Positions 4,099 to 58,118 of a stretch of DNA of 64,000 nt are shown here, piece after piece (the stretch's first letter is position 1; each line of letters starts with the position of its first letter). This DNA is from an uncultured Clostridia bacterium (GTDB lineage Bacteria; Bacillota; Clostridia; Christensenellales; UBA1242), in NCBI GenBank assembly GCA_944350265.1, contig CALVOG010000001.1, positions 149,470-213,469 on the forward strand, written 5' to 3'. The position numbers and the translations under genes were made by a program. The notes below the pieces were generated by a model. The model was not told the DNA's origin. It ran no database searches and was given only the letters and a program-made list of their open reading frames with translations.

Positions 4099-4168
4099 AT
4101 TTAGCGCGCTTTTTAGTCCAAATCACATTTCATATTCAATACTAAACATAACAGGAAACACAATTAAT

Positions 4169-4574
4169 AAGTGGTAGTTTTATAATTTTTGTAAGCTGTT
4201 CTACGACCATTCTTCGCTGGCGACGCTATCGCTCCTTGCTCAGAATGACATTTAAGTGTATTTCCTTCGGTATGCGCTTTATTATAACCACACTGTGCCG
4301 TTTTTGATGTTGTATTCTTCCATCGTTTAGCGCGCTATAATGCTTTTACCGTTAGACAAGGCAGTTGTTTGTCATTCTGAGGCAACGCCGAAGAATCTCG
4401 TCGTAGCACAACCCGCGAATGTCTATTTTATCCACTTTTCATATGTTTAATCCATACTCTATTTCGTCAGCAAAACACGGCTAAGCCCAAAACTCCCCAA
4501 ACATCCAAGCGCGCTTGGTCATTCTGAGCGAAGCGAAGAATCTCGTCGTAGCACCCGCCCGCGAATGTCTTAAC
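4169..4574. repeat. mosaic intergenic repeat cluster L1 (B-rev 4169-4256, Y-like spacer, W+X+Z 4330-4436, palindromic box 4505-4518, X+Z 4518-4572)
   Basis: X core gtcattctgag..gaagaatctcgtcgtag at 4371 and 4518 (forward) and its B variant at 4201-4250 (reverse). Z box gcccgcgaatgtcta is present. The locus lies between convergent genes. Confidence 0.9.
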
Positions 4575-4663
4575 CATCCCCTTTGCCCAAGTGCAACTAA
4601 TCTACACTCAAAAATGCTTAGCGCTAAATGAGCGTTAAGCATTTTATGTTAAAGTTTTAAGCA

Positions 4664-5119: not shown

Positions 5120-5159
5120 ATTAACCTCATAATAAGTTTTGCCAAACATAAAAAACTTA

Positions 5160-5362
5160 AACCAAATCTCATAATAATTGTCGAAAATAAAAAACATAAA
5201 TCTAATTAACTTATAATGGATTGCCAAGCGTTAACCAAATCTCATAATAATTGTCGAAAATAAAAAACATAAATCTAATTAACTTATAACGGATTGCCAA
5301 GCGTTAACCAAATCTCGTAATAATTGTCGAAAATAAAAAACATAAATCTAATTAACTTATAA
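5160..5362. repeat. 73-bp tandem repeat, about 2.8 copies
   Basis: aaccaaatctcataataattgtcgaaaataaaaaacataaatctaattaacttataatggattgccaagcgtt starts at 5160, 5233 and 5306, with 1-2 mismatches per copy. Flanked by a ~45-bp direct repeat (5121-5167 and 5412-5458). Confidence 0.9.
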
Positions 5363-5508
5363 TAAGTTTTTCAGCGTATTAAGTTGCTGAGCGTAAATAA
5401 TTTAAAATAAATTAACCTCAAATAAGTTTTTCCAAATATTAAAAACTTAAACCAAAAAAGAATAAACTGCCAATAATAACACAAACTAGAGTTATACTTG
5501 GAGGGAAT

Positions 5509-7227: not shown

Positions 7228-7334
7228 CGTTTGCGTTGTTCAATCATAATTAGGGCTATTGGTAAGAGGTTAAGTAAACACAAAAAATATGCTTGACAAA
7301 GCCAGTTGATTTTAACCAGCATAAAAAATAAAAA

Positions 7335-7369
7335 GGAGTTCTACTTTTTAGCAGTAAAACTCTTTTTTT
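7335..7369. terminator. bidirectional rho-independent terminator between convergent genes
   Basis: GGAGTTcTAC-tttttagca-GTAaAACTC with an A-run before and TTTTTTT after. The same hairpin recurs at 58086-58118. Confidence 0.6.
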
Positions 7370-12125: not shown

Positions 12126-12216
12126 AAAAATCCTCTTTAAAAATTTGTAGGTGACGCTGTTAAACTCTAAATGCTTGTTGCACAAGATATGGCTAAACAC
12201 GCGACATATCAATGTT

Positions 12217-12690
12217 ACCTAGCGTGCAGTATTGCCTCTACCGCTAGGACTGCCACCCTGTTTGTCATTCTGAGCGAAGCGAAGAATGGATGTAGGTGAC
12301 GCTGTCACATTCTAAGGTTTCGCGTGTTAGACGGTGTCGCTTAAACCGAAGGCTAGTTACTCTATCACCGCCCGCGAACGTCTAATCCATCTTCTTATTG
12401 TCGAAGCGGAAGAATGGACGTAGGTGACGCTGTCACATTCTAAGGTTTCGCGTGTTAGGCTGTGTCGCTTAACCAAAAACAATGCAGTTTAATGTCATTC
12501 TGAGCGAAGCGAAGAATCTCGTCGTAGCACCAGCCCGTGTATGTCTAATCTATCCTCTTTTTTTGTTGGCAAATTACAGCCAAACTTTAAACACTCATCT
12601 CATCCAAGCGCGCCTTTTTCAATGTATGTCTAATCCATCCTCTTTTCCCCAGCCAAACACGGCTTATATGTGCCAACAATCCCACACGCT
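12217..12690. repeat. mosaic intergenic repeat cluster L2 (W-X-Y-Z-X'-Y-X-Z chain)
   Basis: X at 12262-12295, Y (gtgacgctgtcacattctaaggtttcgcgtgttag...) at 12296-12365, Z at 12366-12390, partial X at 12399-12423, second Y at 12424, full X at 12492-12527, long Z at 12528-12615, and an extra Z fragment to 12667. Confidence 0.9.
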
Positions 12691-12947
12691 TATGTTTATA
12701 TATAATAACTTACATATATACATACATTAATATTATATCCCCCAAATCGAAAAAAATCAAACAAATCAATCGGTTTAATAAAAATTCCGTCATAGTTTTC
12801 TTATTTCTTCTTTCAAAATAATTTGAACTGAAGTAAAAATAGGAAAACAAAAAAATAATTTGAACTGTAAAATGAAATAAGAGTGAAGAGAGAAAAAAGA
12901 AAAAATAAGAGAACCAAAAAAATAATTCGAAGAACGAATTATTTTTT

Positions 12948-13075
12948 TGGTGCGGGCGGTGGGGGTCGCTCCGCGGATAGTAAGGCTTCGCTGGCTGTTC
13001 CGCTATCACGCCGGGGCGGGCGAACGCAAACACAGTTGCCTTCGCTACTCCGCCCGTTCGACCCGCTTACAAACT
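12948..13075 (-). repeat. tRNA-Leu 3'-end-derived 128-nt unit U1
   Basis: The first 21 nt (tggtgcgggcggtgggggtcg) are identical to tRNA-Leu positions 56-76 including ACCA. The remaining 107 nt are GC-rich and hairpin-forming. A hairpin terminator lies at 12916-12948. Confidence 0.85.
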
Positions 13076-13387
13076 TTAATAAAAAATAAAAAGTAAAAAA
13101 TAAGAGAACAAAAAAATAATTTGAAATTCAACCACACTCTTACATCGCTCTCCTTGTAAGAGAGTAGCGACCTACTCGCCAACGAAGTGCGAGTTGCGTT
13201 TGGTCGCTAAAAGAAAAAACAAGCGAAAAGGCGATGCAACGGAAGAAACGGCTCTTCATTTCAACTTTTGCCTTACGTCAAAAGTCTTACCATTCGTTTG
13301 TTTCTTCCTTATTCCAAAAAATGCGTAAAGCATTTTTCGGAGACCTAAACGCTTGTTCGAAAACGAGCAAAAGTGCAGTTTTTTCTT

Positions 13388-13515
13388 TGGTGCGGGCGGT
13401 GGGGGTCGCTCCGCGGATAGTTGGGCTTCGCTGGTGGTTCCGCTATCACGCCGGGGCGGGCGAACGCAAACACAGTTGCCTTCGCTACTCCGCCCGTTCG
13501 ACCCGCTTACAAACT
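13388..13515 (-). repeat. tRNA-Leu 3'-end-derived 128-nt unit U2
   Basis: Differs from U1 at 4 positions only (gtAAggc vs gtTGggc, ggCTgtt vs ggTGgtt). Lies 440 bp from U1 in the same orientation as the tRNA. Confidence 0.85.
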
Positions 13516-13516
13516 T

Positions 13517-13550
13517 AAATAAAAAAAGAAAGTTCCTCTTTTCAACTTTC
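13517..13550 (-). terminator. terminator of tRNA-Leu
   Basis: On the minus strand: GAAAGTT-gaaaagagg-AACTTTC followed by TTTTTTTATTT, starting 7 nt after the tRNA CCA end. Confidence 0.55.
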
Positions 13551-13556
13551 TTCGTT

Positions 13557-13638
13557 TGGTGCGGGCGGTGGGGGTCGAACCCACACTCTTTCGAACATGC
13601 CCCTTAAACATGCGCGTCTGCCATTCCGCCACGCCCGC
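13557..13638 (-). tRNA. tRNA-Leu, anticodon reads AAG (82 nt, CCA encoded)
   Basis: Hand fold. Acceptor GCGGGCG/CGCCCGC. Leu-type D arm GCGGAATGGCAGACGC. Anticodon stem CATGT/GCATG with loop TTAAGGG. Variable arm TTC-GAAA-GAG-T. T arm GTGGG-TTCGACC-CCCAC. Ends in ACCA. Confidence 0.85.
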
Positions 13639-24720: not shown

Positions 24721-26556
24721 TTATTCTCCTTCTTTTAAAAGTTTTTTGTGAGCCATAATATGCTCCAAAAAGTTATTTTCAATCTCGCTGGTTGCGTTCT
24801 TTTCGTATTCGCCAGAAAGCATAAACGCAATATGCTCATCGATGTGAAGTTTGTTATCGTCAATCACTTTAACATCCACCTTTTCGCCGTCTAACAGTGC
24901 AAGGTTTTCGTTGTCCGCCCGACGAGTGTGAAGAGCCTGCAAGTTTTTGGCGCTCTCCCAATTACCAAAGCCCAAAATTTCCAAAATCTTCCCTTTAACG
25001 CTTTCAGTTAACTTGCCGTTCTCGTCATAGAGAATGCCCTTATCTAAGAGCGTATAAATCATATTTCGCCTTTGCGTTAAGGTTTCAGCGCCGTCACTTT
25101 CGGTTTCAAACTGAACGTCGTCACTTGAAATATCGCTCGACTTAAAGTAAAAAATCTCTGGCGAACCATTGTCTCCAACAATTTTAAGTAGACGCGGAAT
25201 GTTGGCAAACTGCTTATACAGCCTTAAAATTTGCTTACCAATACTTTTAATCGCACTCTTTATGCTGTCGGTTGTGAAGGAAAGCCGAGTTTGGTTTTCG
25301 TCTAAAAGTAATTCAAGTGCCACACCGCTCACCGACGCTGAAATGGTGGTTAAATCGCCCATTTCCGACATTCCGCACAAAGTGGTAAATTCCTCCAAAA
25401 GTTTTTCCTCTTCCTTTTCAAATGCGGTTGGCAAATTTTCGTTTGCAAGGTATTTTGGCGCGTCCGCACCTTGGCGATACACCAAAATTTTCCCAGGCGC
25501 TAAACCTTCATCCTCCAAATTTTCCACATCCACACTGCCATCCTCAACCGCCAAAACTCCCAAAGTGAGCCTATTAAGAAATTCGTGCTTGCGATTTTTA
25601 ACCGCGTTATATGCCCGTTGAAGAGGTATCATTCTTTCAATCAAACTTCTTCCCCAAAACGAGCCAACCTCGTCACAACAAACCTGCTTCACAAATGGGA
25701 AATCTCGCTTGCCGTCGATGCCGTTGACGTATGGCAATTCACCGTCAAAAACAAGCTCGTCGCCTGCAACGATGATAAGCCGTCCATTCGGCGCGTCCTC
25801 ACTTGGACGGATGTATTTTTCGATAACGAGGTTCGCATCCCTCTTCACGCTCGCATTAAGTTTGGTGCCAATGCCGTTATATCCAAGCCCGCCTGTTGAA
25901 TACGAGGCGTCGAGCGAGAACACGTTGATGTCCTTCCCTTCCACACTCACGCCATACATCTTTTCAATCTCTTTGGCGGAGTAGACTTTCGCGTGAATTA
26001 CGCTTTGGCAGTCCTCCAAACTTTCCGCCGTGACGCTATCGGGGTAGATTTCAAACGGCGAGCAAACGGCAATGTCCACATCGCCCGCTTTAATCTTCCG
26101 TCCGCTGTCCTCAATCGCCACAACCTGCCCTAGGTTTGGGTTCCAAAGCACCTTATAGAAGCAAGTTCCGCAAAGTTCGCTCCACTTTGTGGCTTGGTTA
26201 ATCTTCTTGGAAAGGCTATGCTTTGCCGACACCGAATCCAAAATTTTTTTGGAAAGTTTTGCCGTGTAAACATCCTTTTCATCGTTCGTCGCTGGCACAA
26301 CGTAAAGTTTCGGTCTTATCGCTGAAAGTTTGGAAAGGCGTAAATCAACCTTTGGTGCGATATGGTTGAAAACCTCTCGCTCTTGCCAAAAATACTGCCT
26401 GTCCATATCCTCCACAATACCACCAAAACCAATCGTCGAAAATTGGTTGCCCATATAGAAGTCCATATTCAACTTCCACTGCGTTTCAAACGGTTTTCGC
26501 TCGATTGCGCGACGCTCAAAATCTTCTAAAACCTCTTTAACCAAATCACTTTTCAT
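24721..26556 (-). CDS. phage portal protein
   Basis: About 611 aa, in the position upstream of scaffold and capsid, with a portal-like N-terminal segment (QWKLNMDFYMGNQF). Start set to MKSDLVKEV (26556), which has a GGAGG RBS. Confidence 0.7.
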   Translation of the reverse strand: MKSDLVKEVLEDFERRAIERKPFETQWKLNMDFYMGNQFSTIGFGGIVEDMDRQYFWQEREVFNHIAPKVDLRLSKLSAIRPKLYVVPATNDEKDVYTAKLSKKILDSVSAKHSLSKKINQATKWSELCGTCFYKVLWNPNLGQVVAIEDSGRKIKAGDVDIAVCSPFEIYPDSVTAESLEDCQSVIHAKVYSAKEIEKMYGVSVEGKDINVFSLDASYSTGGLGYNGIGTKLNASVKRDANLVIEKYIRPSEDAPNGRLIIVAGDELVFDGELPYVNGIDGKRDFPFVKQVCCDEVGSFWGRSLIERMIPLQRAYNAVKNRKHEFLNRLTLGVLAVEDGSVDVENLEDEGLAPGKILVYRQGADAPKYLANENLPTAFEKEEEKLLEEFTTLCGMSEMGDLTTISASVSGVALELLLDENQTRLSFTTDSIKSAIKSIGKQILRLYKQFANIPRLLKIVGDNGSPEIFYFKSSDISSDDVQFETESDGAETLTQRRNMIYTLLDKGILYDENGKLTESVKGKILEILGFGNWESAKNLQALHTRRADNENLALLDGEKVDVKVIDDNKLHIDEHIAFMLSGEYEKNATSEIENNFLEHIMAHKKLLKEGE

Positions 26557-26773
26557 TTTTCCTCCTTGATATCGCTCTGTTGGGTTTAAAGTGCGACTCC
26601 ACTGCCTTTGGCACGAAAAGTTTGGCAAGTTCTTCATAGAGCGATTTCAAACACTCTTCGCAAAACGCAAACTCGTTTCGAATAAACCCGCGAGTTGAGA
26701 TGTAATATTTTGCAAGGTGTCGACAACCACTTGAATCGCACTTAACAATATGGCGACATTTTTCAACTTTCAC
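26546..26773 (-). CDS. small Cys-rich (zinc-finger-like) protein, 75 aa
   Basis: Cys residues at positions 6, 12, 17, 38 and 41 (CRHIVKCDSSGC ... CEEC). It occupies the slot where a large terminase is expected and overlaps both neighbours. Confidence 0.45.
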   Translation of the reverse strand: MKVEKCRHIVKCDSSGCRHLAKYYISTRGFIRNEFAFCEECLKSLYEELAKLFVPKAVESHFKPNRAISRRKNEK

Positions 26774-28825: not shown

Positions 28826-28846
28826 GAGTTAAAACAGCAATAGCTA

Positions 28847-29162
28847 ATGTGGTATCATTAGAATTTTGTAAGCCGTTCTTCGACGAGATTCTTCGCTGGC
28901 GTCAGCGTTGCTTCCTTGCTCAGAATGACAAATAACTGCTTTGCCTTCGGTATAAGCGACACTGCAAACACATGACACTTTAGTAAGTGATAGCGTAGTT
29001 GTAACATAACTCATAACGTAAGGCGACACTGCTAAATGTCATTCTGAGCGAAGCGAAGAATCTCGTCGTAGCACCCGCCCGCGTATGTCTATTCTATCCT
29101 CTTGTTGCTAGTAAAACACGGCTAAACCCAAAACGCACCTCACATCCAAGCGCGCTTGGTCA
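28847..29162. repeat. mosaic intergenic repeat cluster L3 (B-rev, Y-rev, X, long Z)
   Basis: B-rev at 28847-28930, reversed Y fragment at 28925-28995, X at 29037-29071, long Z ending in the palindrome ccaagcgcgcttgg at 29146-29159. Confidence 0.9.
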
Positions 29163-29424
29163 TAAAAAAATACTTAGCGTAAAGATAAACGCTAAGCATT
29201 TTTTAGAATTGTTAAAATGATGTTTTTTAGAGTTTGTATAACGCAACTGACGCTAAGCATCACAATATTCACTCAAAATTCGAACCCCACTAAATCCTCA
29301 ATAAGGTTTGCATTACAAAAATAATTTCACAACACTCACTAAAATTCGAACCTACACTAAATCATTTAACAGCCAAATGACACTTATAATAAATCTCGCG
29401 CTAGGCTAAATCTCGCAACTCACA

Positions 29425-30120: not shown

Positions 30121-30333
30121 TTCAAAGATTAAAAATTAATTTCATTTTCGTTTCAAGTTTTAGCAATTAATTTTGTTCTCATTTCAAGATTACAGATTAA
30201 TTTCGCTTTCATTTCAAGGCTATAGATTAATTTTGATTTTATTTCAAAGTTTATCAATTAATTTTGATTTCATTTCAAGATTACAGATTAATTTCGCTTT
30301 CATTTCAAGGTTTATCAATTTATTTTGGTTTTT
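30121..30333. repeat. about 30-bp tandem array, 7 units
   Basis: Units tttcaag(a/g)(t/c)ta(c/t)agattaattt(c/t)g(c/a)tttca. Units 3 and 6 are identical (30182-30211 and 30273-30302), which gives a 91-bp higher-order period. Confidence 0.9.
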
Positions 30334-31306: not shown

Positions 31307-31450
31307 AAAAAATGTTTATGTTACAACCGCGAAAAAAAGACGCCTTACTTAAAACAAAAGCTCTATTAATAATCCAAGTATGCATATTCTTAAAATACAT
31401 ATTGAAATAAATTCTTTTTAAGAGGTAATTGTAAAATCTTTGAAAGCAAT

Positions 31451-31530
31451 ATCTACGACGAGATTCTTCGCTGGCGTCGCATTGCTTCTTGCTCAGAATG
31501 ACATTTAGCGGTATCACCGCGGTATAAGTT
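31451..31530. repeat. mosaic repeat L4 (single B-rev copy)
   Basis: Sequence: ctacgacgagattcttcgctggcgtcgcattgcttcttgctcagaatgacatttagcggtatcaccgcggtataag. Confidence 0.85.
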
Positions 31531-31609
31531 AAATTACAATCACAACTATTTACTTCCCTAAAACACAGCCAAAAGTCGAAGTGTATTTTTGAATGTTTAC
31601 GAATTAAAT

Positions 31610-37434: not shown

Positions 37435-37460
37435 TCTACCGCGTAATTGGTATGTTTAAA

Positions 37461-37700
37461 GTTGCTTAGCGTGCCACAACACTTATGCTGTTAAGACTAT
37501 TGATTAATTTGTCATTCTGAGCGGAGCGAAGAATCTCGTCGTAGCCACCACCCGCGTATGTCTAACAATTCCTCAGTGGCAAAGCCACATTTTGATGTTT
37601 CGCGCATTGCGCCCTATCGCTAAATCAATGGCGCTTGGTGGCGAAGCCACATTTTGATGTATTGCGTGTTACGCTTTATTGCTTAAATCAATCGTGCTTA
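37461..37700. repeat. mosaic intergenic repeat cluster L5 (W-X-Z then two tandem Y-type units)
   Basis: X at 37508-37545 (core gcggagc). Y-type units start at 37576 and 37638 (62-bp period) with hairpins GTGGCaaaGCCAC and GTGGCgaaGCCAC. Confidence 0.85.
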
Positions 37701-37809: not shown

Positions 37810-38541
37810 ATGGAAGATATTTTCAAGTCTTGGCTGGTGGAAACGCCAATCGCTCACAGAGGTTTGCACGATAAAACACACCCGGAAAATTCACTTGGCG
37901 CTTTCCAAAGAGCGTGCGAAAGTGGTTACGCAATCGAACTTGACGTGCAACTGCTTGCCGACGAAACCGTTGTTGTTTTCCACGACGAAAGTTTGTCGCG
38001 TATGACAGGCAACGATGGCTATTTGAAGTTTTTAAACAAAGAAGATTTGAAAGTTCTCTCATTAGGCGGAACGAAAGAGCATATCCCAACTTTCGAAGAG
38101 GTGCTTGCCCTTGTTGACGGTAAAACTCCCCTTTTAATTGAGATTAAAAATCAATTTAAGGTGGGAAAGTTGGAGCAAAAAGTTATCGACCTTTTGAAAG
38201 ATTATAAGGGCGAATTTGCGGTGCAGTCGTTCAATCCGTTTTCGTTGAACTACTTTAAGCATCACGCGCCAAGCATTCTTCGCGGTCAACTTTCTGGCTA
38301 TTTCAAAGGCGAAAAACTCGCATATTTCAAGAAATTTTTGCTGAAACGTATGGCATTCAATAAGAACATAAGCGAGCCACACTTCAATTCTTACGACGCA
38401 ACCACCCTCCCGAACCGCTTTGTGAAAAAATATAAAAATTTGCCACTGCTTGCGTGGACTGTGCGCAGTAAGGAAGATTATTTAAAAGTTGTGAAGCATT
38501 GCGATAACATTATTTTTGAAAACTTCATCCCAGAGATTTAA
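37810..38541 (+). CDS. glycerophosphodiester phosphodiesterase (cytoplasmic UgpQ-like)
   Basis: IAHRGL, ENSLGAF, ELDVQL, HIPTFEEVL, LLIEIK. 243 aa, no signal peptide. Confidence 0.85.
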   Translation: MEDIFKSWLVETPIAHRGLHDKTHPENSLGAFQRACESGYAIELDVQLLADETVVVFHDESLSRMTGNDGYLKFLNKEDLKVLSLGGTKEHIPTFEEVLALVDGKTPLLIEIKNQFKVGKLEQKVIDLLKDYKGEFAVQSFNPFSLNYFKHHAPSILRGQLSGYFKGEKLAYFKKFLLKRMAFNKNISEPHFNSYDATTLPNRFVKKYKNLPLLAWTVRSKEDYLKVVKHCDNIIFENFIPEI

Positions 38542-38550
38542 GCGTAAAAT

Positions 38551-38690
38551 CACCTATATTACCCGCCCGCGAATGTCTAATCTTTCCTCTTACCGCCAAC
38601 TAAACACGGCTAAACTTTAAACACCTCACTTACCCAAGCACGCGGGCATTCTTAGACAACCCCGAAGAATGGTCGTTTATGGTGATTTTA
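38551..38690. repeat. mosaic repeat cluster L6 (long Z plus diverged X)
   Basis: acccgcccgcgaatgtctaatctttcctc ... aaacacggctaaac ... cccaagcacgcgggcattcttagacaaccccgaagaatggtcg. Confidence 0.8.
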
Positions 38691-42415: not shown

Positions 42416-42490
42416 ACGCCCTCCTCATTGTATATATATTATATAACATTTATAGAAAAAATCAAATAAAAAATGAAAGATTTTTAAAGG

Positions 42491-42650
42491 TAGTGGCGAA
42501 GCCACTTTCTAAGGTATCGCATATTAGACTGCGTCTGTTGCGCAAAAGGCTAATTTACCTATCACCGCCCGCGAACGTCTAATCTTTCCTATTTTTGCTA
42601 GAAAAACACAGCTAAACATAAAACACCTCAACAATCCAAGCGCGCTTGTC
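42491..42650. repeat. mosaic repeat cluster L7 (Y plus long Z)
   Basis: The Y hairpin is GTGGCgaaGCCAC. Then caccgcccgcgaacgtctaatctttcc ... aaacacagctaaac ... atccaagcgcgcttg. Confidence 0.85.
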
Positions 42651-42682
42651 AAATGCTCAAACCGTGCCGATAGCACTTTCAT

Positions 42683-46844: not shown

Positions 46845-47135
46845 TCCACATCCAAGCGCGCAATGTATAAATCTAATTGTCGCGTGGTAACACTTATACC
46901 GATAGGACTATTGGTTTATTTGTCATTCTGAGGCGAAGCCGAAGAATCTCGTCGTAGCACCCACCCGCGTATGTCTAATTATACCTCTTAAAATATAAAA
47001 TTGCACTAGTGTCGATACCCACTGACTTTTTAAGTGGTAGTTTTAGAATTTTTGTAAGCCGTTCTACGACGAGATTCTTCGCTGGCGTCGCCTTGCTCCT
47101 TGCTCAGAATGACATTTAGCGATATTTCTTATAGC
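46845..47135. repeat. mosaic repeat cluster L8 (Z end box, W, X, Z forward; B reverse)
   Basis: X at 46919-46956 (core ggcgaagcc) and B-rev at 47028-47122. Confidence 0.9.
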
Positions 47136-47215
47136 GTGTTAAGCATATTATAAAAGCGCACCTCTTTTCAACCATTCAAGTGCGCTATAATAAAAAAAGA
47201 TTTAAAAGTTTCCTT

Positions 47216-53234: not shown

Positions 53235-53744
53235 TTAAAAGTCGTCATCCTCGTCGTCCTCTTCCTCTTCTTCGTCGTCATCCTCGTCGTCGTCAAAGTC
53301 GTCCTCATCATCCTCTTCCTCTTCTTCGTCGTCAAAATCTTCGTCGAGGTCAATCTCTTCGTCCAGCGAGTCGTCAAAACCGATGTCGGTGTCGATTTCG
53401 TCGTCTAACATATCGCTGTCGCCAAGTTCGGTGACGGAAGCCATATCGCCGGTTTCCTCATCCTCGTCAACAACCTCGTCCTCATCTCTATTAAGATAAT
53501 CTTCCCAGTCGGAACTAAGTTCGCCGTCCTCGGTTTGGTGTTCTTTTAAGCAAGTTGAGCACATAATCTCGTCTGGCGAGATGTAGTTGGTTTTGCAAAT
53601 AGGGCAAAGTTCAAGGTCAAGGTCGCTTGTGTATTCATCCTTCTTCGCGGAAAGTTCCGCCTTACAAACACTGCAAAGTTTGTCTTTCTTCTCAATATAA
53701 TTAAGTTCACATCTTGGACATCTAATGTAAACAGGTTTTCTCAT
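53235..53744 (-). CDS. double zinc-ribbon protein with about 100-aa poly-acidic tail
   Basis: Start set to MRKPVYIRC, which has a GGAGGG RBS. Motifs CPRC..17..CSVC and CPIC..14..CSTC. The tail is Asp/Glu-rich and ends DDEEEEEDDEDDFDDDEDDDEEEEEDDEDDDF. Confidence 0.6.
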   Translation of the reverse strand: MRKPVYIRCPRCELNYIEKKDKLCSVCKAELSAKKDEYTSDLDLELCPICKTNYISPDEIMCSTCLKEHQTEDGELSSDWEDYLNRDEDEVVDEDEETGDMASVTELGDSDMLDDEIDTDIGFDDSLDEEIDLDEDFDDEEEEEDDEDDFDDDEDDDEEEEEDDEDDDF

Positions 53745-53824
53745 AATCCCTCCTAATATCGCTCTTATTCTACAAAGAAAATTTCCTATTGTCAACTAAA
53801 TTTTGATATTTTTTCACAGATTTT

Positions 53825-55792: not shown

Positions 55793-55886
55793 AGAGATAT
55801 TTTAGCAAAAAGATGAGAAAAAAACAACATTTATTCGACAATATTTTCCTAAATCACTCACTTTTTTAGTTTTGCACGCGTTTTGA

Positions 55887-56575
55887 GGTGACACTGTCAC
55901 TTTTTGTGGTGTCGCGTGCTAGGCAGTGTCGCTTATACCAAAGGCAGGGCAGTTATTTGTCATTCTGAGCGTAGCGAAGAATCTCGTCGTAGCACCAGCC
56001 CGCGAACGTCTAATAATTCCTCTTAAGAAACACTTGCTTAAGAAACACTTGCCACGCAATACCATTTCTACCGCTAGGACTGTCAGCCTATTTGTCATTT
56101 TGTGCGGAGCGAAGAATGGTCGTAGGTGACGCTGTCACATTCTAAGGTGTCGCGTGCTAGGCAGTGTCACTTATACCGAAGGCAAGGCAGTTATTTGTCA
56201 TTCTGAGGCAACGCCGAAGAATCTCGTCGTAGCACCAGCCCGCGAACGTCTAATAATTCCTCATAAAAAATGCTTAGCGTTTACTTTACACTAAGCGTTG
56301 TATTTTAAAATTTTAAGCACTTGCTTTTAATATCTATTCGTCAAAGTGGTAATTTTAGAGTTTTGTAAGCCGTTATACGACGAGATTCTTCGCTGGCGTC
56401 GCCTTGCTTCTTGCTCAGAATGACATTTAACGATATCGCTTTGTGGTTTAGGTTATTTTGCAAACATACTATATCATCCATCACCAAGCCCGCGGACGTC
56501 TAATCTTTCCTATTTTTATTTGCAAAACGCGACTAAGCCACATATCAATCATCCAAGTGCGCTTGGTCCTCGTCA
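55887..56575. repeat. mosaic intergenic repeat cluster L9, the largest (Y-X-Z, W-X-Y-X-Z, B-rev, long Z)
   Basis: X cores at 55958, 56096 and 56197 (forward), B-rev at 56341-56440, long Z at 56475-56567 whose end box overlaps the recombinase stop region. Confidence 0.9.
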
Positions 56576-57603: not shown

Positions 57604-57687
57604 ACAATAATTATACCAACATCGCCAAAAAAAGTAAAACAAATTTAGCGCAAAAAGCGTTTAACTGCGATTAAGTGCCATCCGCTC

Positions 57688-58020
57688 AAAGTGGTAATGT
57701 TTGAGTTTGTGTAAGTGAGTTCTACGACGAGATTCTTCGCTAGCGTCACTACCGCTCCTTGCTCAGAATGACATTTAACGGTATCGCCTTACGGTATGCA
57801 CACTGCGTCGTTTTTGATGTTGTGTATTCTTCTATAGCTTAACGCGCAGTAACACCTATACCGCAAAGACTATCACGCTATTTGTCATTCTGAGGCGAAG
57901 CCGAAGAATCTCGTCGTAGGTGACACTGTCACTTTTTGTCGTTTCGCGTGCTAAACATTATTGCTTACATCAAGAAAAACCACAATATCATCACCCGCGT
58001 ATGTCAAATTATTCCTCTTT
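57688..58020. repeat. mosaic intergenic repeat cluster L10 (B-rev, Y-like, W, X, Y, Z)
   Basis: B-rev at 57688-57780, X at 57884-57919 (core ggcgaagcc), Y hairpin GTGACactGTCAC at 57920, Z remnant cacccgcgtatgtcaaattattcc. Confidence 0.9.
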
Positions 58021-58085
58021 AGAAAAAAGCAACAAAACGCGCAAGGGTTAAATCATTTTTAAACTAGCGTAATAAAAAAGAAAAA

Positions 58086-58118
58086 GAGTTCTACTTTTTA
58101 GCGGTAAAACTCTTTTTT
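58086..58118. terminator. terminator-like hairpin, second copy of the 7335 hairpin
   Basis: GAGTTcTAC-tttttagcg-GTAaAACTC followed by TTTTTT. One-base difference from 7336-7369. Confidence 0.5.

Follow-up and report, generated by a model that had tools for sequence, protein, structure and literature searches.

What kind of element makes up the mosaic of short repeats in the spacers of this stretch of contig CALVOG010000001.1, from an uncultured Clostridia bacterium (64 kb, hereafter the window), and how has it spread? An initial annotation, made from the sequence alone, had described recurring modules, named W, X, Y and Z together with a subfamily of X called B, chained in varying order at ten loci. 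Judged by its sequence, the central module X classifies as a TGTC-tagged REP of the CGTC superfamily, within the class of hairpins related to the Neisseria NTS and the Ssn nucleases. The mosaic adds a new Gram-positive case to a type of intergenic mosaic already known, and its core is not a new kind of element; what may be new is the Clostridia-type Firmicute host and the placement of short-loop and long-loop copies of X on opposite chromosome strands. The host DNA (about 40% G+C, with SpoVAC/SpoVAEB, DUF1292 and PFOR) is that of a Clostridia-type Firmicute, whose closest named relatives are metagenome-assembled genomes (MAGs) labelled 'Clostridiales bacterium'.

Copies and structure of the X hairpin

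Self-BLAST of the window returned ten interspersed loci of 533, 428, 383, 180, 124, 131, 160, 277, 683 and 453 nt as its main interspersed repeats (Table 1), amounting to 3352 nt or 5.2% of the window, in agreement with the ten loci, the roughly 5% and the hand tally of about 3.1 kb initially annotated. The core pattern of X, GTCATTCTGAG-N(5-30)-GAAGAATCTCGTCGTAG, had 12 exact matches in the window and none in 100 shuffles. A hairpin-aware scan recovered 10 intact short-loop and 6 long-loop copies; with three degenerate ones (at 12390, 38648 and 56092) the window holds 13 short-loop and 6 long-loop copies, that is 19 in 64 kb where none is expected. These are the annotated counts of X and B, and the positions given for Y, Z, W and the B tail were likewise correct. 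A local duplication was rejected as the source, as copies are distributed across at least 84 kb (the window plus about 20 kb of co-specific flanking DNA, referred to below as the DNA examined) and occur on another contig of the species.

X is a hairpin of 34-52 nt in which TGTC is followed by ATTCT, GA, a loop closed by G/C pairs, GA, AGAAT and then a tail, CTCGTCGTAG or GGNCGTAG. The facing GA dinucleotides form a tandem G.A mismatch, and the stem (ATTCTGAGC against GCGAAGAAT) comprises nine positions, seven Watson-Crick pairs and the tandem G.A. Short-loop copies carry GC-GAA-GC, GGC-GAA-GCC, GGC-AAC-GCC or GCC-AAC-GGC, with a triloop of 3 nt (GAA, GGA, GTA or AAC), and in long-loop copies the loop is an insert of at least 20 nt (22-25 nt) closed by GC...GC. 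The reading of B as X with a long insert plus a tail was thus right, with the correction that B always lies on the opposite strand. The tag directly before the stem is (T/A)TGTC in most copies and TGGTC in two (at 4516 in the window and 3886 in strain sequence L021).

The pairing is supported by covariation. The outer stem is ATTCT/AGAAT in the window, ATCCT/AGGAT in cyanobacteria and in a relative whose tyrosine recombinase is 87% identical to the one encoded in the window, and ATGCT/AGCAT in the metagenomic contig set L035; the inner stem varies among GC/GC, GGC/GCC, GCC/GGC and GT/AC. Across 12 X variants every stem position pairs, two pairs show compensatory change, and GA/GA is invariant. 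A conserved GTAG follows the X hairpin on its 3' side after a 6-nt spacer, and is missing from Y hairpins that have no X before them (TGAG at 55888, CTCA at 37576, CTTG at 37638). Folded as DNA with nearest-neighbour parameters, single X units were no better than shuffles (z about 0); inverted doublets of a short and a long copy, of which three are head-to-head and two tail-to-tail, form as single strands hairpins of about 200 nt, with z = -6.4 and -8.7.

The class of X and its association with Ssn genes

REPs fall into GTAG-tagged and CGTC-tagged superfamilies (Di Nocera 2013, PMC3733652). Those of the second carry an unpaired CGTC tag, for which TGTC and CCTC are common substitutes. Their stems have 8-9 bp and open with an A-T and then a T-A pair, their loops are 4-5 nt long, with families of other loop lengths noted, and they end in a short 3' tail of consensus CCA; heterodimers are frequent, and no tyrosine transposase was found associated with them (PMC3733652). 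X agrees with families CGTC-1 to CGTC-4 in its TGTC tag, its nine stem positions starting A-T then T-A, its unpaired 3' tail, its copy number and intergenic location, its head-to-head and tail-to-tail dimers, often heterodimers, and the lack of an associated transposase. It departs from them in its loop (3 or >20 nt, not 4-5), in its tail (CTC... in place of CCA) and in having conserved flanking modules as a rule, which are rare there. A GTAG REP would carry its GTAG at the 5' foot of the hairpin, whereas here it stands 6 nt 3' of X. The phyla listed for CGTC REPs are Proteobacteria, Chlorobi, Bacteroidetes, Spirochaetes and Thermotogae, and Firmicutes are listed for neither superfamily (PMC3733652).

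A close described counterpart comes from Neisseria, whose dRS3 repeat, found within mosaic intergenic arrays, is a member of the CGTC superfamily (PMC3733652). The Neisseria NTS, CGTCATTCCCGCGMAVGCGGGAATCYRG, is bound as single-stranded DNA by SsnA, a GIY-YIG nuclease of 94 aa that cuts a few bases upstream of it; the three bases before the palindrome are needed for cleavage and the C after it for binding (Chenal 2025, PMC11893778). X has GTCATTC on its 5' side and GAATC on its 3' side in common with NTS, and the NTS-critical bases, in the form GTC-ATTCT...AGAAT-C, are kept in 15 of the 19 window copies, the subfamily with the GGNCGTAG tail having G for C. The likeness to the NTS/dRS3-NIME system extends to a (C/T)GTC 5' tag, a stem starting with ATTC, a GAATC that closes the hairpin, an orientation given by non-palindromic flanks, and many strain-variable copies, nearly all intergenic, in arrays interleaved with other repeats. 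Unlike NTS, X has an invariant tandem G.A, a GNA-type triloop or a long inner hairpin and the longer tail CTCGTCGTAG, and its host is a spore-forming Clostridia-type bacterium, while for Neisseria the ssn gene is known (SsnA).

In their architecture the arrays are BIME-like, as initially proposed: the module maps show alternating hairpins and a few recurring linker modules whose order varies by locus, as in BIMEs and NIMEs. GTAG-3 REPs include loops closed by GC or GGC beside long loops, and heterodimers whose partners differ in loop length (PMC3733652). The E. coli BIMEs (REPs Y, Z1 and Z2 with linker motifs; GTAG-3) are similar mosaics of alternating short- and long-loop hairpins closed by GC or GGC, with non-complementary dinucleotides between stem and loop, conserved linker modules, and arrays located after genes and between convergent genes. 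They differ by GTAG where X has a 5' TGTC and by RAYT where the presumed partner here is a GIY-YIG protein, and there is no sequence similarity.

Hairpins of the NTS type usually bracket ssn genes, and most homologues are found in Gram-negatives (PMC11893778); gonococcal SsnA was recovered here with its flanking NTS copies. On plasmid p1 of Planktothrix agardhii, tblastn revealed a 94-aa Ssn homologue 48% identical to gonococcal SsnA (E 1e-18) in the same record as a match to the X core and no more than 250 nt from it. This gene has TGTCATTCTGAG-TGAAAC-GAAGAATCTC hairpins on both sides, and every one of them forms a pair with an oppositely oriented long-loop hairpin whose stem is ATCCT. An Ssn-subfamily gene in each of two metagenomic contig sets is flanked likewise, in L035 by hairpins with ATGCT stems whose short and long loops are oppositely oriented, and in L036-L039 by an ATCCT hairpin upstream and an ATTCT hairpin downstream. 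Hairpins of this subclass (TGTCAT-NNN-GAG...CGAAG-NNN-ATC, 90-97% identical to the X core) thus bracket a cd10448-type GIY-YIG gene in three contexts, all in other organisms, so that X is the repeat partner of an Ssn subfamily in other phyla. These doublets also pair a short-loop copy with an inverted long-loop copy; they lack the tail CTCGTCGTAG and modules W, Y, Z, T and V, and their partner hairpins differ in the stem too (ATTCT vs ATCCT). In Planktothrix p1 (L034, 1-5261) the Ssn gene and its hairpins lie between an MmeI-type restriction-modification gene and the DISARM gene drmA, and in L035 the Ssn gene has a type I restriction (HsdR-like) gene on one side and an HsdM gene on the other; each of these settings is a defence island.

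The initial annotation held that the modules might turn out to match a described repeat family, and this is the case for X (PMC3733652, PMC11893778); the other modules match nothing described. X alone is shared across phyla, having been seen in a Chloroflexia MAG, Calothrix, Planktothrix and Hymenobacter, whereas W, Y, Z, T and V are confined to this species. BLAST of the W-X-Z1 unit against plasmids matched only its X core, in the last three of these genera, and in plasmid and phage collections X was likewise the only module matched. Scans with the exact pattern gave one match among GTDB species representatives, the Chloroflexia MAG, one in JGI metagenomes and none in viral contigs. A protein search with a spurious open reading frame (ORF) running through X-Z had a single match, P0121, which led to one further locus (L027/L028), and a full-text literature search for the repeat sequence and its encoded peptides returned nothing relevant. 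No Rfam covariance model matched any of the repeats, X or other modules, at the gathering score or at E<=5; the fast filters of Rfam can miss true matches, as a tRNA at 13557-13638 went unreported in the gathering run and scored 47.7 bits in the evalue run, above its gathering score of 29.

Strain differences, strand orientation and spread

Close strains, with recombinases 99% identical, differ by entire modules. Two of the strain sequences, L004 and L005, carry at window position ~57657 an extra, clean W-X-Z1 unit of 113 nt (CACCACAAC... to ...TTTAGAAAGA), inserted between AAACGCT and TTTTGCGC with a junction ambiguity of 1 nt, at a site without homology to the unit. Compared with the window, the unit shows no terminal inverted repeats and no target duplication above 1 nt. 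At Array 10 the same two sequences have spacer module V2 in place of the V1 of the window, and L021 carries a block of 515 nt where the corresponding spacer of the window is empty. An orthologous X copy can even differ in its loop, GCGTAGC in the window and GGCAACGCC in L004. More distantly, the relative with 87% recombinase identity has few X copies, polymorphic among its strains and including those with the compensatory ATCCT/AGGAT stem, and it lacks Array 5 (a spacer of 72 nt against 375 nt in the window); relatives at 82% and 80% recombinase identity have no X copies in 21 kb each. The expansion is lineage-specific, recent and restricted to one species, and the density annotated as unusually high is indeed high and specific to this lineage.

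Taken together, these data probably describe a NIME/BIME-like, lineage-specific intergenic mosaic around an Ssn-type X hairpin, which would have spread and been shuffled through nicking and recombination. Under this scenario X would fold wherever DNA becomes single-stranded (replication forks, repair, uptake) into a 5-bp A/T-rich stem, the tandem G.A pair and a G/C stem of 2-3 bp with its triloop, or a longer inner hairpin in the case of B. A small Ssn-family GIY-YIG nuclease, its gene lying in another part of the genome, would bind X in a strand- and sequence-specific manner and nick it, as a single strand, a few bases upstream of the TGTC tag. Successive rounds of nicking and recombinational repair among copies might then spread X together with its passengers W, Z1, T, Y, Z2 and V, producing shuffled modules, scar-free gain and loss of whole units between strains, and inverted short-/long-loop doublets. 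A cognate Ssn in this genome, its cutting of X and nicking as the driver of spread are our inference.

Several observations weigh against this scenario. There is no GIY-YIG gene in the window or in the ~20 kb of co-specific flanks, and no mention of Firmicutes, Clostridia, Bacillus or Gram-positive hosts was found in the text of the Ssn study (PMC11893778), which goes no further than an analogy with insertion sequences; nuclease-driven copying is demonstrated for no Ssn (PMC11893778). X alone is a thermodynamically weak hairpin, as seen above, and the 515-nt block of L021 replaces ~24 nt of the empty site and is not a clean insertion. Moreover, the published SRM pattern, HGTCWYN(0-2)YYVSBRHN(0-5)WNVSBRGN(0-2)RNCYNB, has zero matches in the window (a canonical NTS was recovered as a control), because the tandem G.A violates its S and G positions. 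As for the species' own ssn gene, among the 120 matches listed for a protein search with the Planktothrix Ssn all were at least 78% identical to that query, and every one named by organism was cyanobacterial; a YazA/UPF0213-type GIY-YIG protein of Subdoligranulum (L032) was set aside as belonging to a different subfamily. The initial annotation had also stated that no mobilising gene was present, which holds in the window for transposases, RAYT and GIY-YIG genes; it had overlooked a tyrosine recombinase, which is nevertheless of a housekeeping, Xer-like type (see below).

The orientation of the copies adds a further constraint. In the window all 11 short-loop copies scored lie on the + strand and all 6 long-loop copies on the - strand; among intact copies, flanks and other strains included, about 14 of 16 short and 8 of 8 long copies obey the rule, and the other contig of the species has four short copies on + and its long copy on -. 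The GC skew of the + strand is negative in 28 of 32 2-kb windows, its cumulative curve drops nearly throughout, and most genes are on the - strand; because of this skew and gene bias the window most likely lies within one replichore, with + as the lagging-strand sequence. The rule is the same beside genes on + (PFOR, GDPD, SDR, ABC permease) and beside genes on -, and is thus independent of the strand of the neighbouring gene, so that orientation tracks the chromosome strand and is not set by which way genes are transcribed; a process that works on single-stranded DNA would be expected to give this. Such a strand rule is not reported in PMC3733652 or PMC11893778. It might reflect a coupling of an Ssn-type nuclease to replication, with short-loop X reading 5'-3' on lagging-strand and long-loop X on leading-strand sequence, although we regard this as rather unlikely. 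Cleavable hairpins may be tolerated only where they are unexposed on the lagging-strand template, or the units may be copied by a nick-primed, strand-specific process; if the latter held, mobile repeats of a new, transposase-free class would be driven by a GIY-YIG nuclease, in a Gram-positive gut anaerobe.

Strand bias is also known for single-strand transposition, as in IS608. The copies could be REP/REPIN elements that depend for their movement on a domesticated Y1 transposase of the IS200/IS605 type (RAYT), acting in trans from another part of the genome, an explanation that we consider unlikely. Besides the strand bias, the hairpin form of the copies, the folding of inverted doublets, the GTAG adjoining X and the gain or loss of the 113-nt unit without target duplication all fit it, and REPIN-RAYT systems (Bertels and Rainey 2011) similarly have inverted doublets that form long hairpins, vertical inheritance, lineage-specific populations and elements that themselves lack a transposase. 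Yet GTAG stands 3' of the hairpin past its spacer and the 5' tag is TGTC, unlike in REPINs; no tyrosine transposase was found associated with CGTC-family repeats (PMC3733652), and the hairpin subclass brackets GIY-YIG and not Y1 genes in its three independent contexts. No RAYT was seen in the DNA examined, and no Y1_Tnp domain was matched among the ~40 window ORFs scanned.

It is just as doubtful that no dedicated enzyme is involved and that the arrays are decaying relics that only homologous recombination, gene conversion and the acquisition of DNA from other strains have shuffled and spread. Blocks exchanged or replaced between strains with flanking homology are what this would give, the orthologous copy that differs in its loop is as gene conversion would leave it, and no enzyme gene was seen in the DNA examined. 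However, the flanks and GA/GA core of X do not vary between phyla although loops and adjacent modules drift, which argues for recognition by a conserved protein, and the 113-nt unit entered a non-homologous site cleanly; the recent expansion in a single species also speaks against this reading.

A main role at the RNA level, as small RNA genes, stabilisers in 3' untranslated regions or terminators, appears improbable. Several arrays lie between a stop codon and a terminator and are therefore probably transcribed, one Y variant is terminator-like (a hairpin followed by TTTTTGT), and effects of REPs on mRNA are known (PMC3733652). Against it stand the absence of an Rfam match even at E<=5, the failure of single units to fold better than shuffles, and an orientation on the chromosome that stays constant whichever strand the neighbouring genes use; moreover, promoter and terminator scans found such sites no commoner than in shuffled sequence, true terminators standing beside the arrays and not inside them. 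Finally, miniature inverted-repeat transposable elements of a DDE-type insertion sequence, such as Correia, BOX or RUP, would also be small, numerous, intergenic and variable between strains, but this likeness, suggested initially for BOX and Correia, is very improbable and already contradicted by the 113-nt unit, which has neither terminal inverted repeats nor a target-site duplication, and by the absence of any transposase gene from the ~84 kb examined.

REP-like hairpins and Ssn nucleases have so far been described mostly in Gram-negative bacteria. If the family is truly Ssn-linked, the system reaches a spore-forming lineage of gut Clostridia, where its repeats make up ~5% of the DNA, and the published pattern overlooks an entire subclass of tandem-G.A hairpins, present also in cyanobacteria, Chloroflexi and Bacteroidota, so that surveys undercount these systems. 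Strains with 99% identical proteins that differ in units would then offer natural material on transposase-free spread, and the same material bears on a possible tie between replication and the orientation of the repeats. Worth following up are the strand rule, the Gram-positive host and the subclass of hairpins missed by the published pattern.

Array maps and other features of the window

Two units recur throughout, W-X(short)-Z1 of ~113 nt on the + strand and W'-X(long)-T on the - strand, with Y, Z2 and the spacers V1 and V2 as optional extensions. W, Y and Z do behave as modules, with two amendments to the initial scheme: W is not independent, the 3' part of Y being homologous to it, and Z consists of Z1 (~32 nt) and Z2 (~55 nt, with the terminal palindrome CCAAGCGCGCTTGG). 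Y is a 5-bp hairpin, GTGAC-GCT-GTCAC, which covaries to GTGGC-GAA-GCCAC. X is optional between W and Z1, being absent at 42491-42650 and 12296-12400.

Table 1. Repeat arrays, X copies and the recombinase gene (window coordinates; rc, reverse complement).
Feature	Position	Strand	Description
Array 1	4131..4663	.	Between convergent SDR and SpoVAC genes; order (+): rc(T), rc(X-long), rc(W), V1, W, X-short, Z1, Z2, X-short, Z1
Array 2	12195..12700	+	Upstream of subtilase gene; W, X (tail GGATGTAG), Y, Z1, truncated X, Y, X-short, Z1, Z2, Z1/Z2 fragment
Array 3	28832..29214	.	Head-to-head doublet: rc(T), rc(X-long), rc(Y), X-short, Z1, Z2
Array 4	31383..31562	-	Single long-loop X, degenerate flanks
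Array 5	37452..37700	+	Downstream of PFOR: X-short, Z1 fragment, two Y variants
Array 6	38540..38690	+	Z1, Z2, degenerate X (GGGCATTCTTAGACAACCCCGAAGAATGGTCG)
Array 7	42480..42652	+	Y variant, W-like, Z1, Z2; no X separating W from Z1
Array 8	46845..47190	.	Tail-to-tail: Z2 tail, W, X-short, Z1, spacer, rc(T), rc(X-long)
Array 9	55880..56575	.	Locus singled out in the initial annotation; Y, X-short, Z1, linker, W, degenerate X, Y, X-short, Z1, terminator, rc(T), rc(X-long), V2, Z1, Z2
Array 10	57666..58118	.	Head-to-head: rc(T-like), rc(X-long), V1, W, X-short, Y, Z1
X short-loop	4371..4406	+	Loop GGCAACGCC
X short-loop	4518..4551	+	Loop GCGAAGC
X short-loop	12262..12295	+	Variant 3' tail GGATGTAG
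X short-loop	12494..12527	+	
X short-loop	29038..29071	+	
X short-loop	37511..37544	+	Loop GCGGAGC
X short-loop	46922..46957	+	Loop GGCGAAGCC
X short-loop	55959..55992	+	Loop GCGTAGC
X degenerate	56092..56125	+	TTGTCATTTTGTGCGGAGCGAAGAATGGTCGTAG
X short-loop	56197..56232	+	Loop GGCAACGCC
X short-loop	57884..57919	+	Loop GGCGAAGCC
X long-loop (B)	4197..4251	-	Tail variant GGTCGTAG
X long-loop (B)	28876..28931	-	
X long-loop (B)	31453..31502	-	
X long-loop (B)	47064..47113	-	
X long-loop (B)	56373..56426	-	
X long-loop (B)	57722..57772	-	
Xer-like tyrosine recombinase, 338 aa	56545..57561	-	Between arrays 9 and 10

In Array 1 the first Z1 is internally duplicated and a terminator-like hairpin follows the array. 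Array 3 is flanked by the stop of a + strand ABC permease gene on one side and by a bidirectional terminator (29173-29196) on the other, and the Y variants of Array 5 have the hairpin GTGGC-AAA/GAA-GCCAC. The terminator within Array 9 is at 56272-56296 on the - strand. A 48-nt terminator-like sequence (AAAAAGAGTTTTAC.GCTAAAAAGTAGAACTC...) is common, at 94% identity, to 7321-7368 and 58072-58118, and terminators of the form GCTTAGCG...CGCTAAGC were found repeatedly beside several arrays.

The recombinase between arrays 9 and 10 was considered as a mobiliser and rejected. It is a single-copy gene that always lies beside spoIVB, in relatives at 99, 87, 82 and 80% identity, and since this synteny is kept in relatives without the repeats it is not carried by the element but is a conserved, Xer-like gene of the housekeeping kind. 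The end of Z2 in Array 9 overlaps its stop region, and its last seven codons and stop (56545-56568, ..YDE-DQAHLDD*) derive from the reverse complement of the Z2 palindrome. In relatives without the repeat the protein ends ..YDE*, and insertion of the repeat has therefore rewritten the 3' end of the gene. The annotation of all copies as intergenic is thus nearly correct, with this Z2 end as the exception, and the spurious ORFs attributed to the repeats are indeed created by the arrays. In practice, the arrays break short-read assemblies, create such ORFs and can change gene ends. A Logan contig carrying the PFOR gene (ERR4096320_29168, L001) ends at its position 5146, inside the X that follows PFOR in the window.

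The region has other features besides the mosaic. Just past the position of the window's right end in other strains, ERZ4767222 and ERZ4767223 (L025/L026, 1-2500) have a rolling-circle Rep gene (PF23343 REP_ORF2-G2P) where L024 has other genes; it looks like a strain-specific integrated element. A gene for a P22-like portal protein (24721-26637, -) stands amid ORFs without a Pfam match, and the block of ~19.2-26.6 kb is probably a prophage remnant. AT-rich intergenic tandem arrays with no relation to the mosaic family occur at 2156-2299, 5131-5456 and 30125-30331 (29 nt x4 upstream of lgt, 73 nt x3, and 30/31 nt x6-7). A direct repeat of 153 nt at 95% identity (12942-13094 and 13381-13533, 440 nt apart) adjoins tRNA-Leu(aag) at 13557-13638(-), and an Asp/Glu-rich ORF at 53235-53795 (-), with periodic repeats of 9-12 nt, encodes a low-complexity acidic protein.

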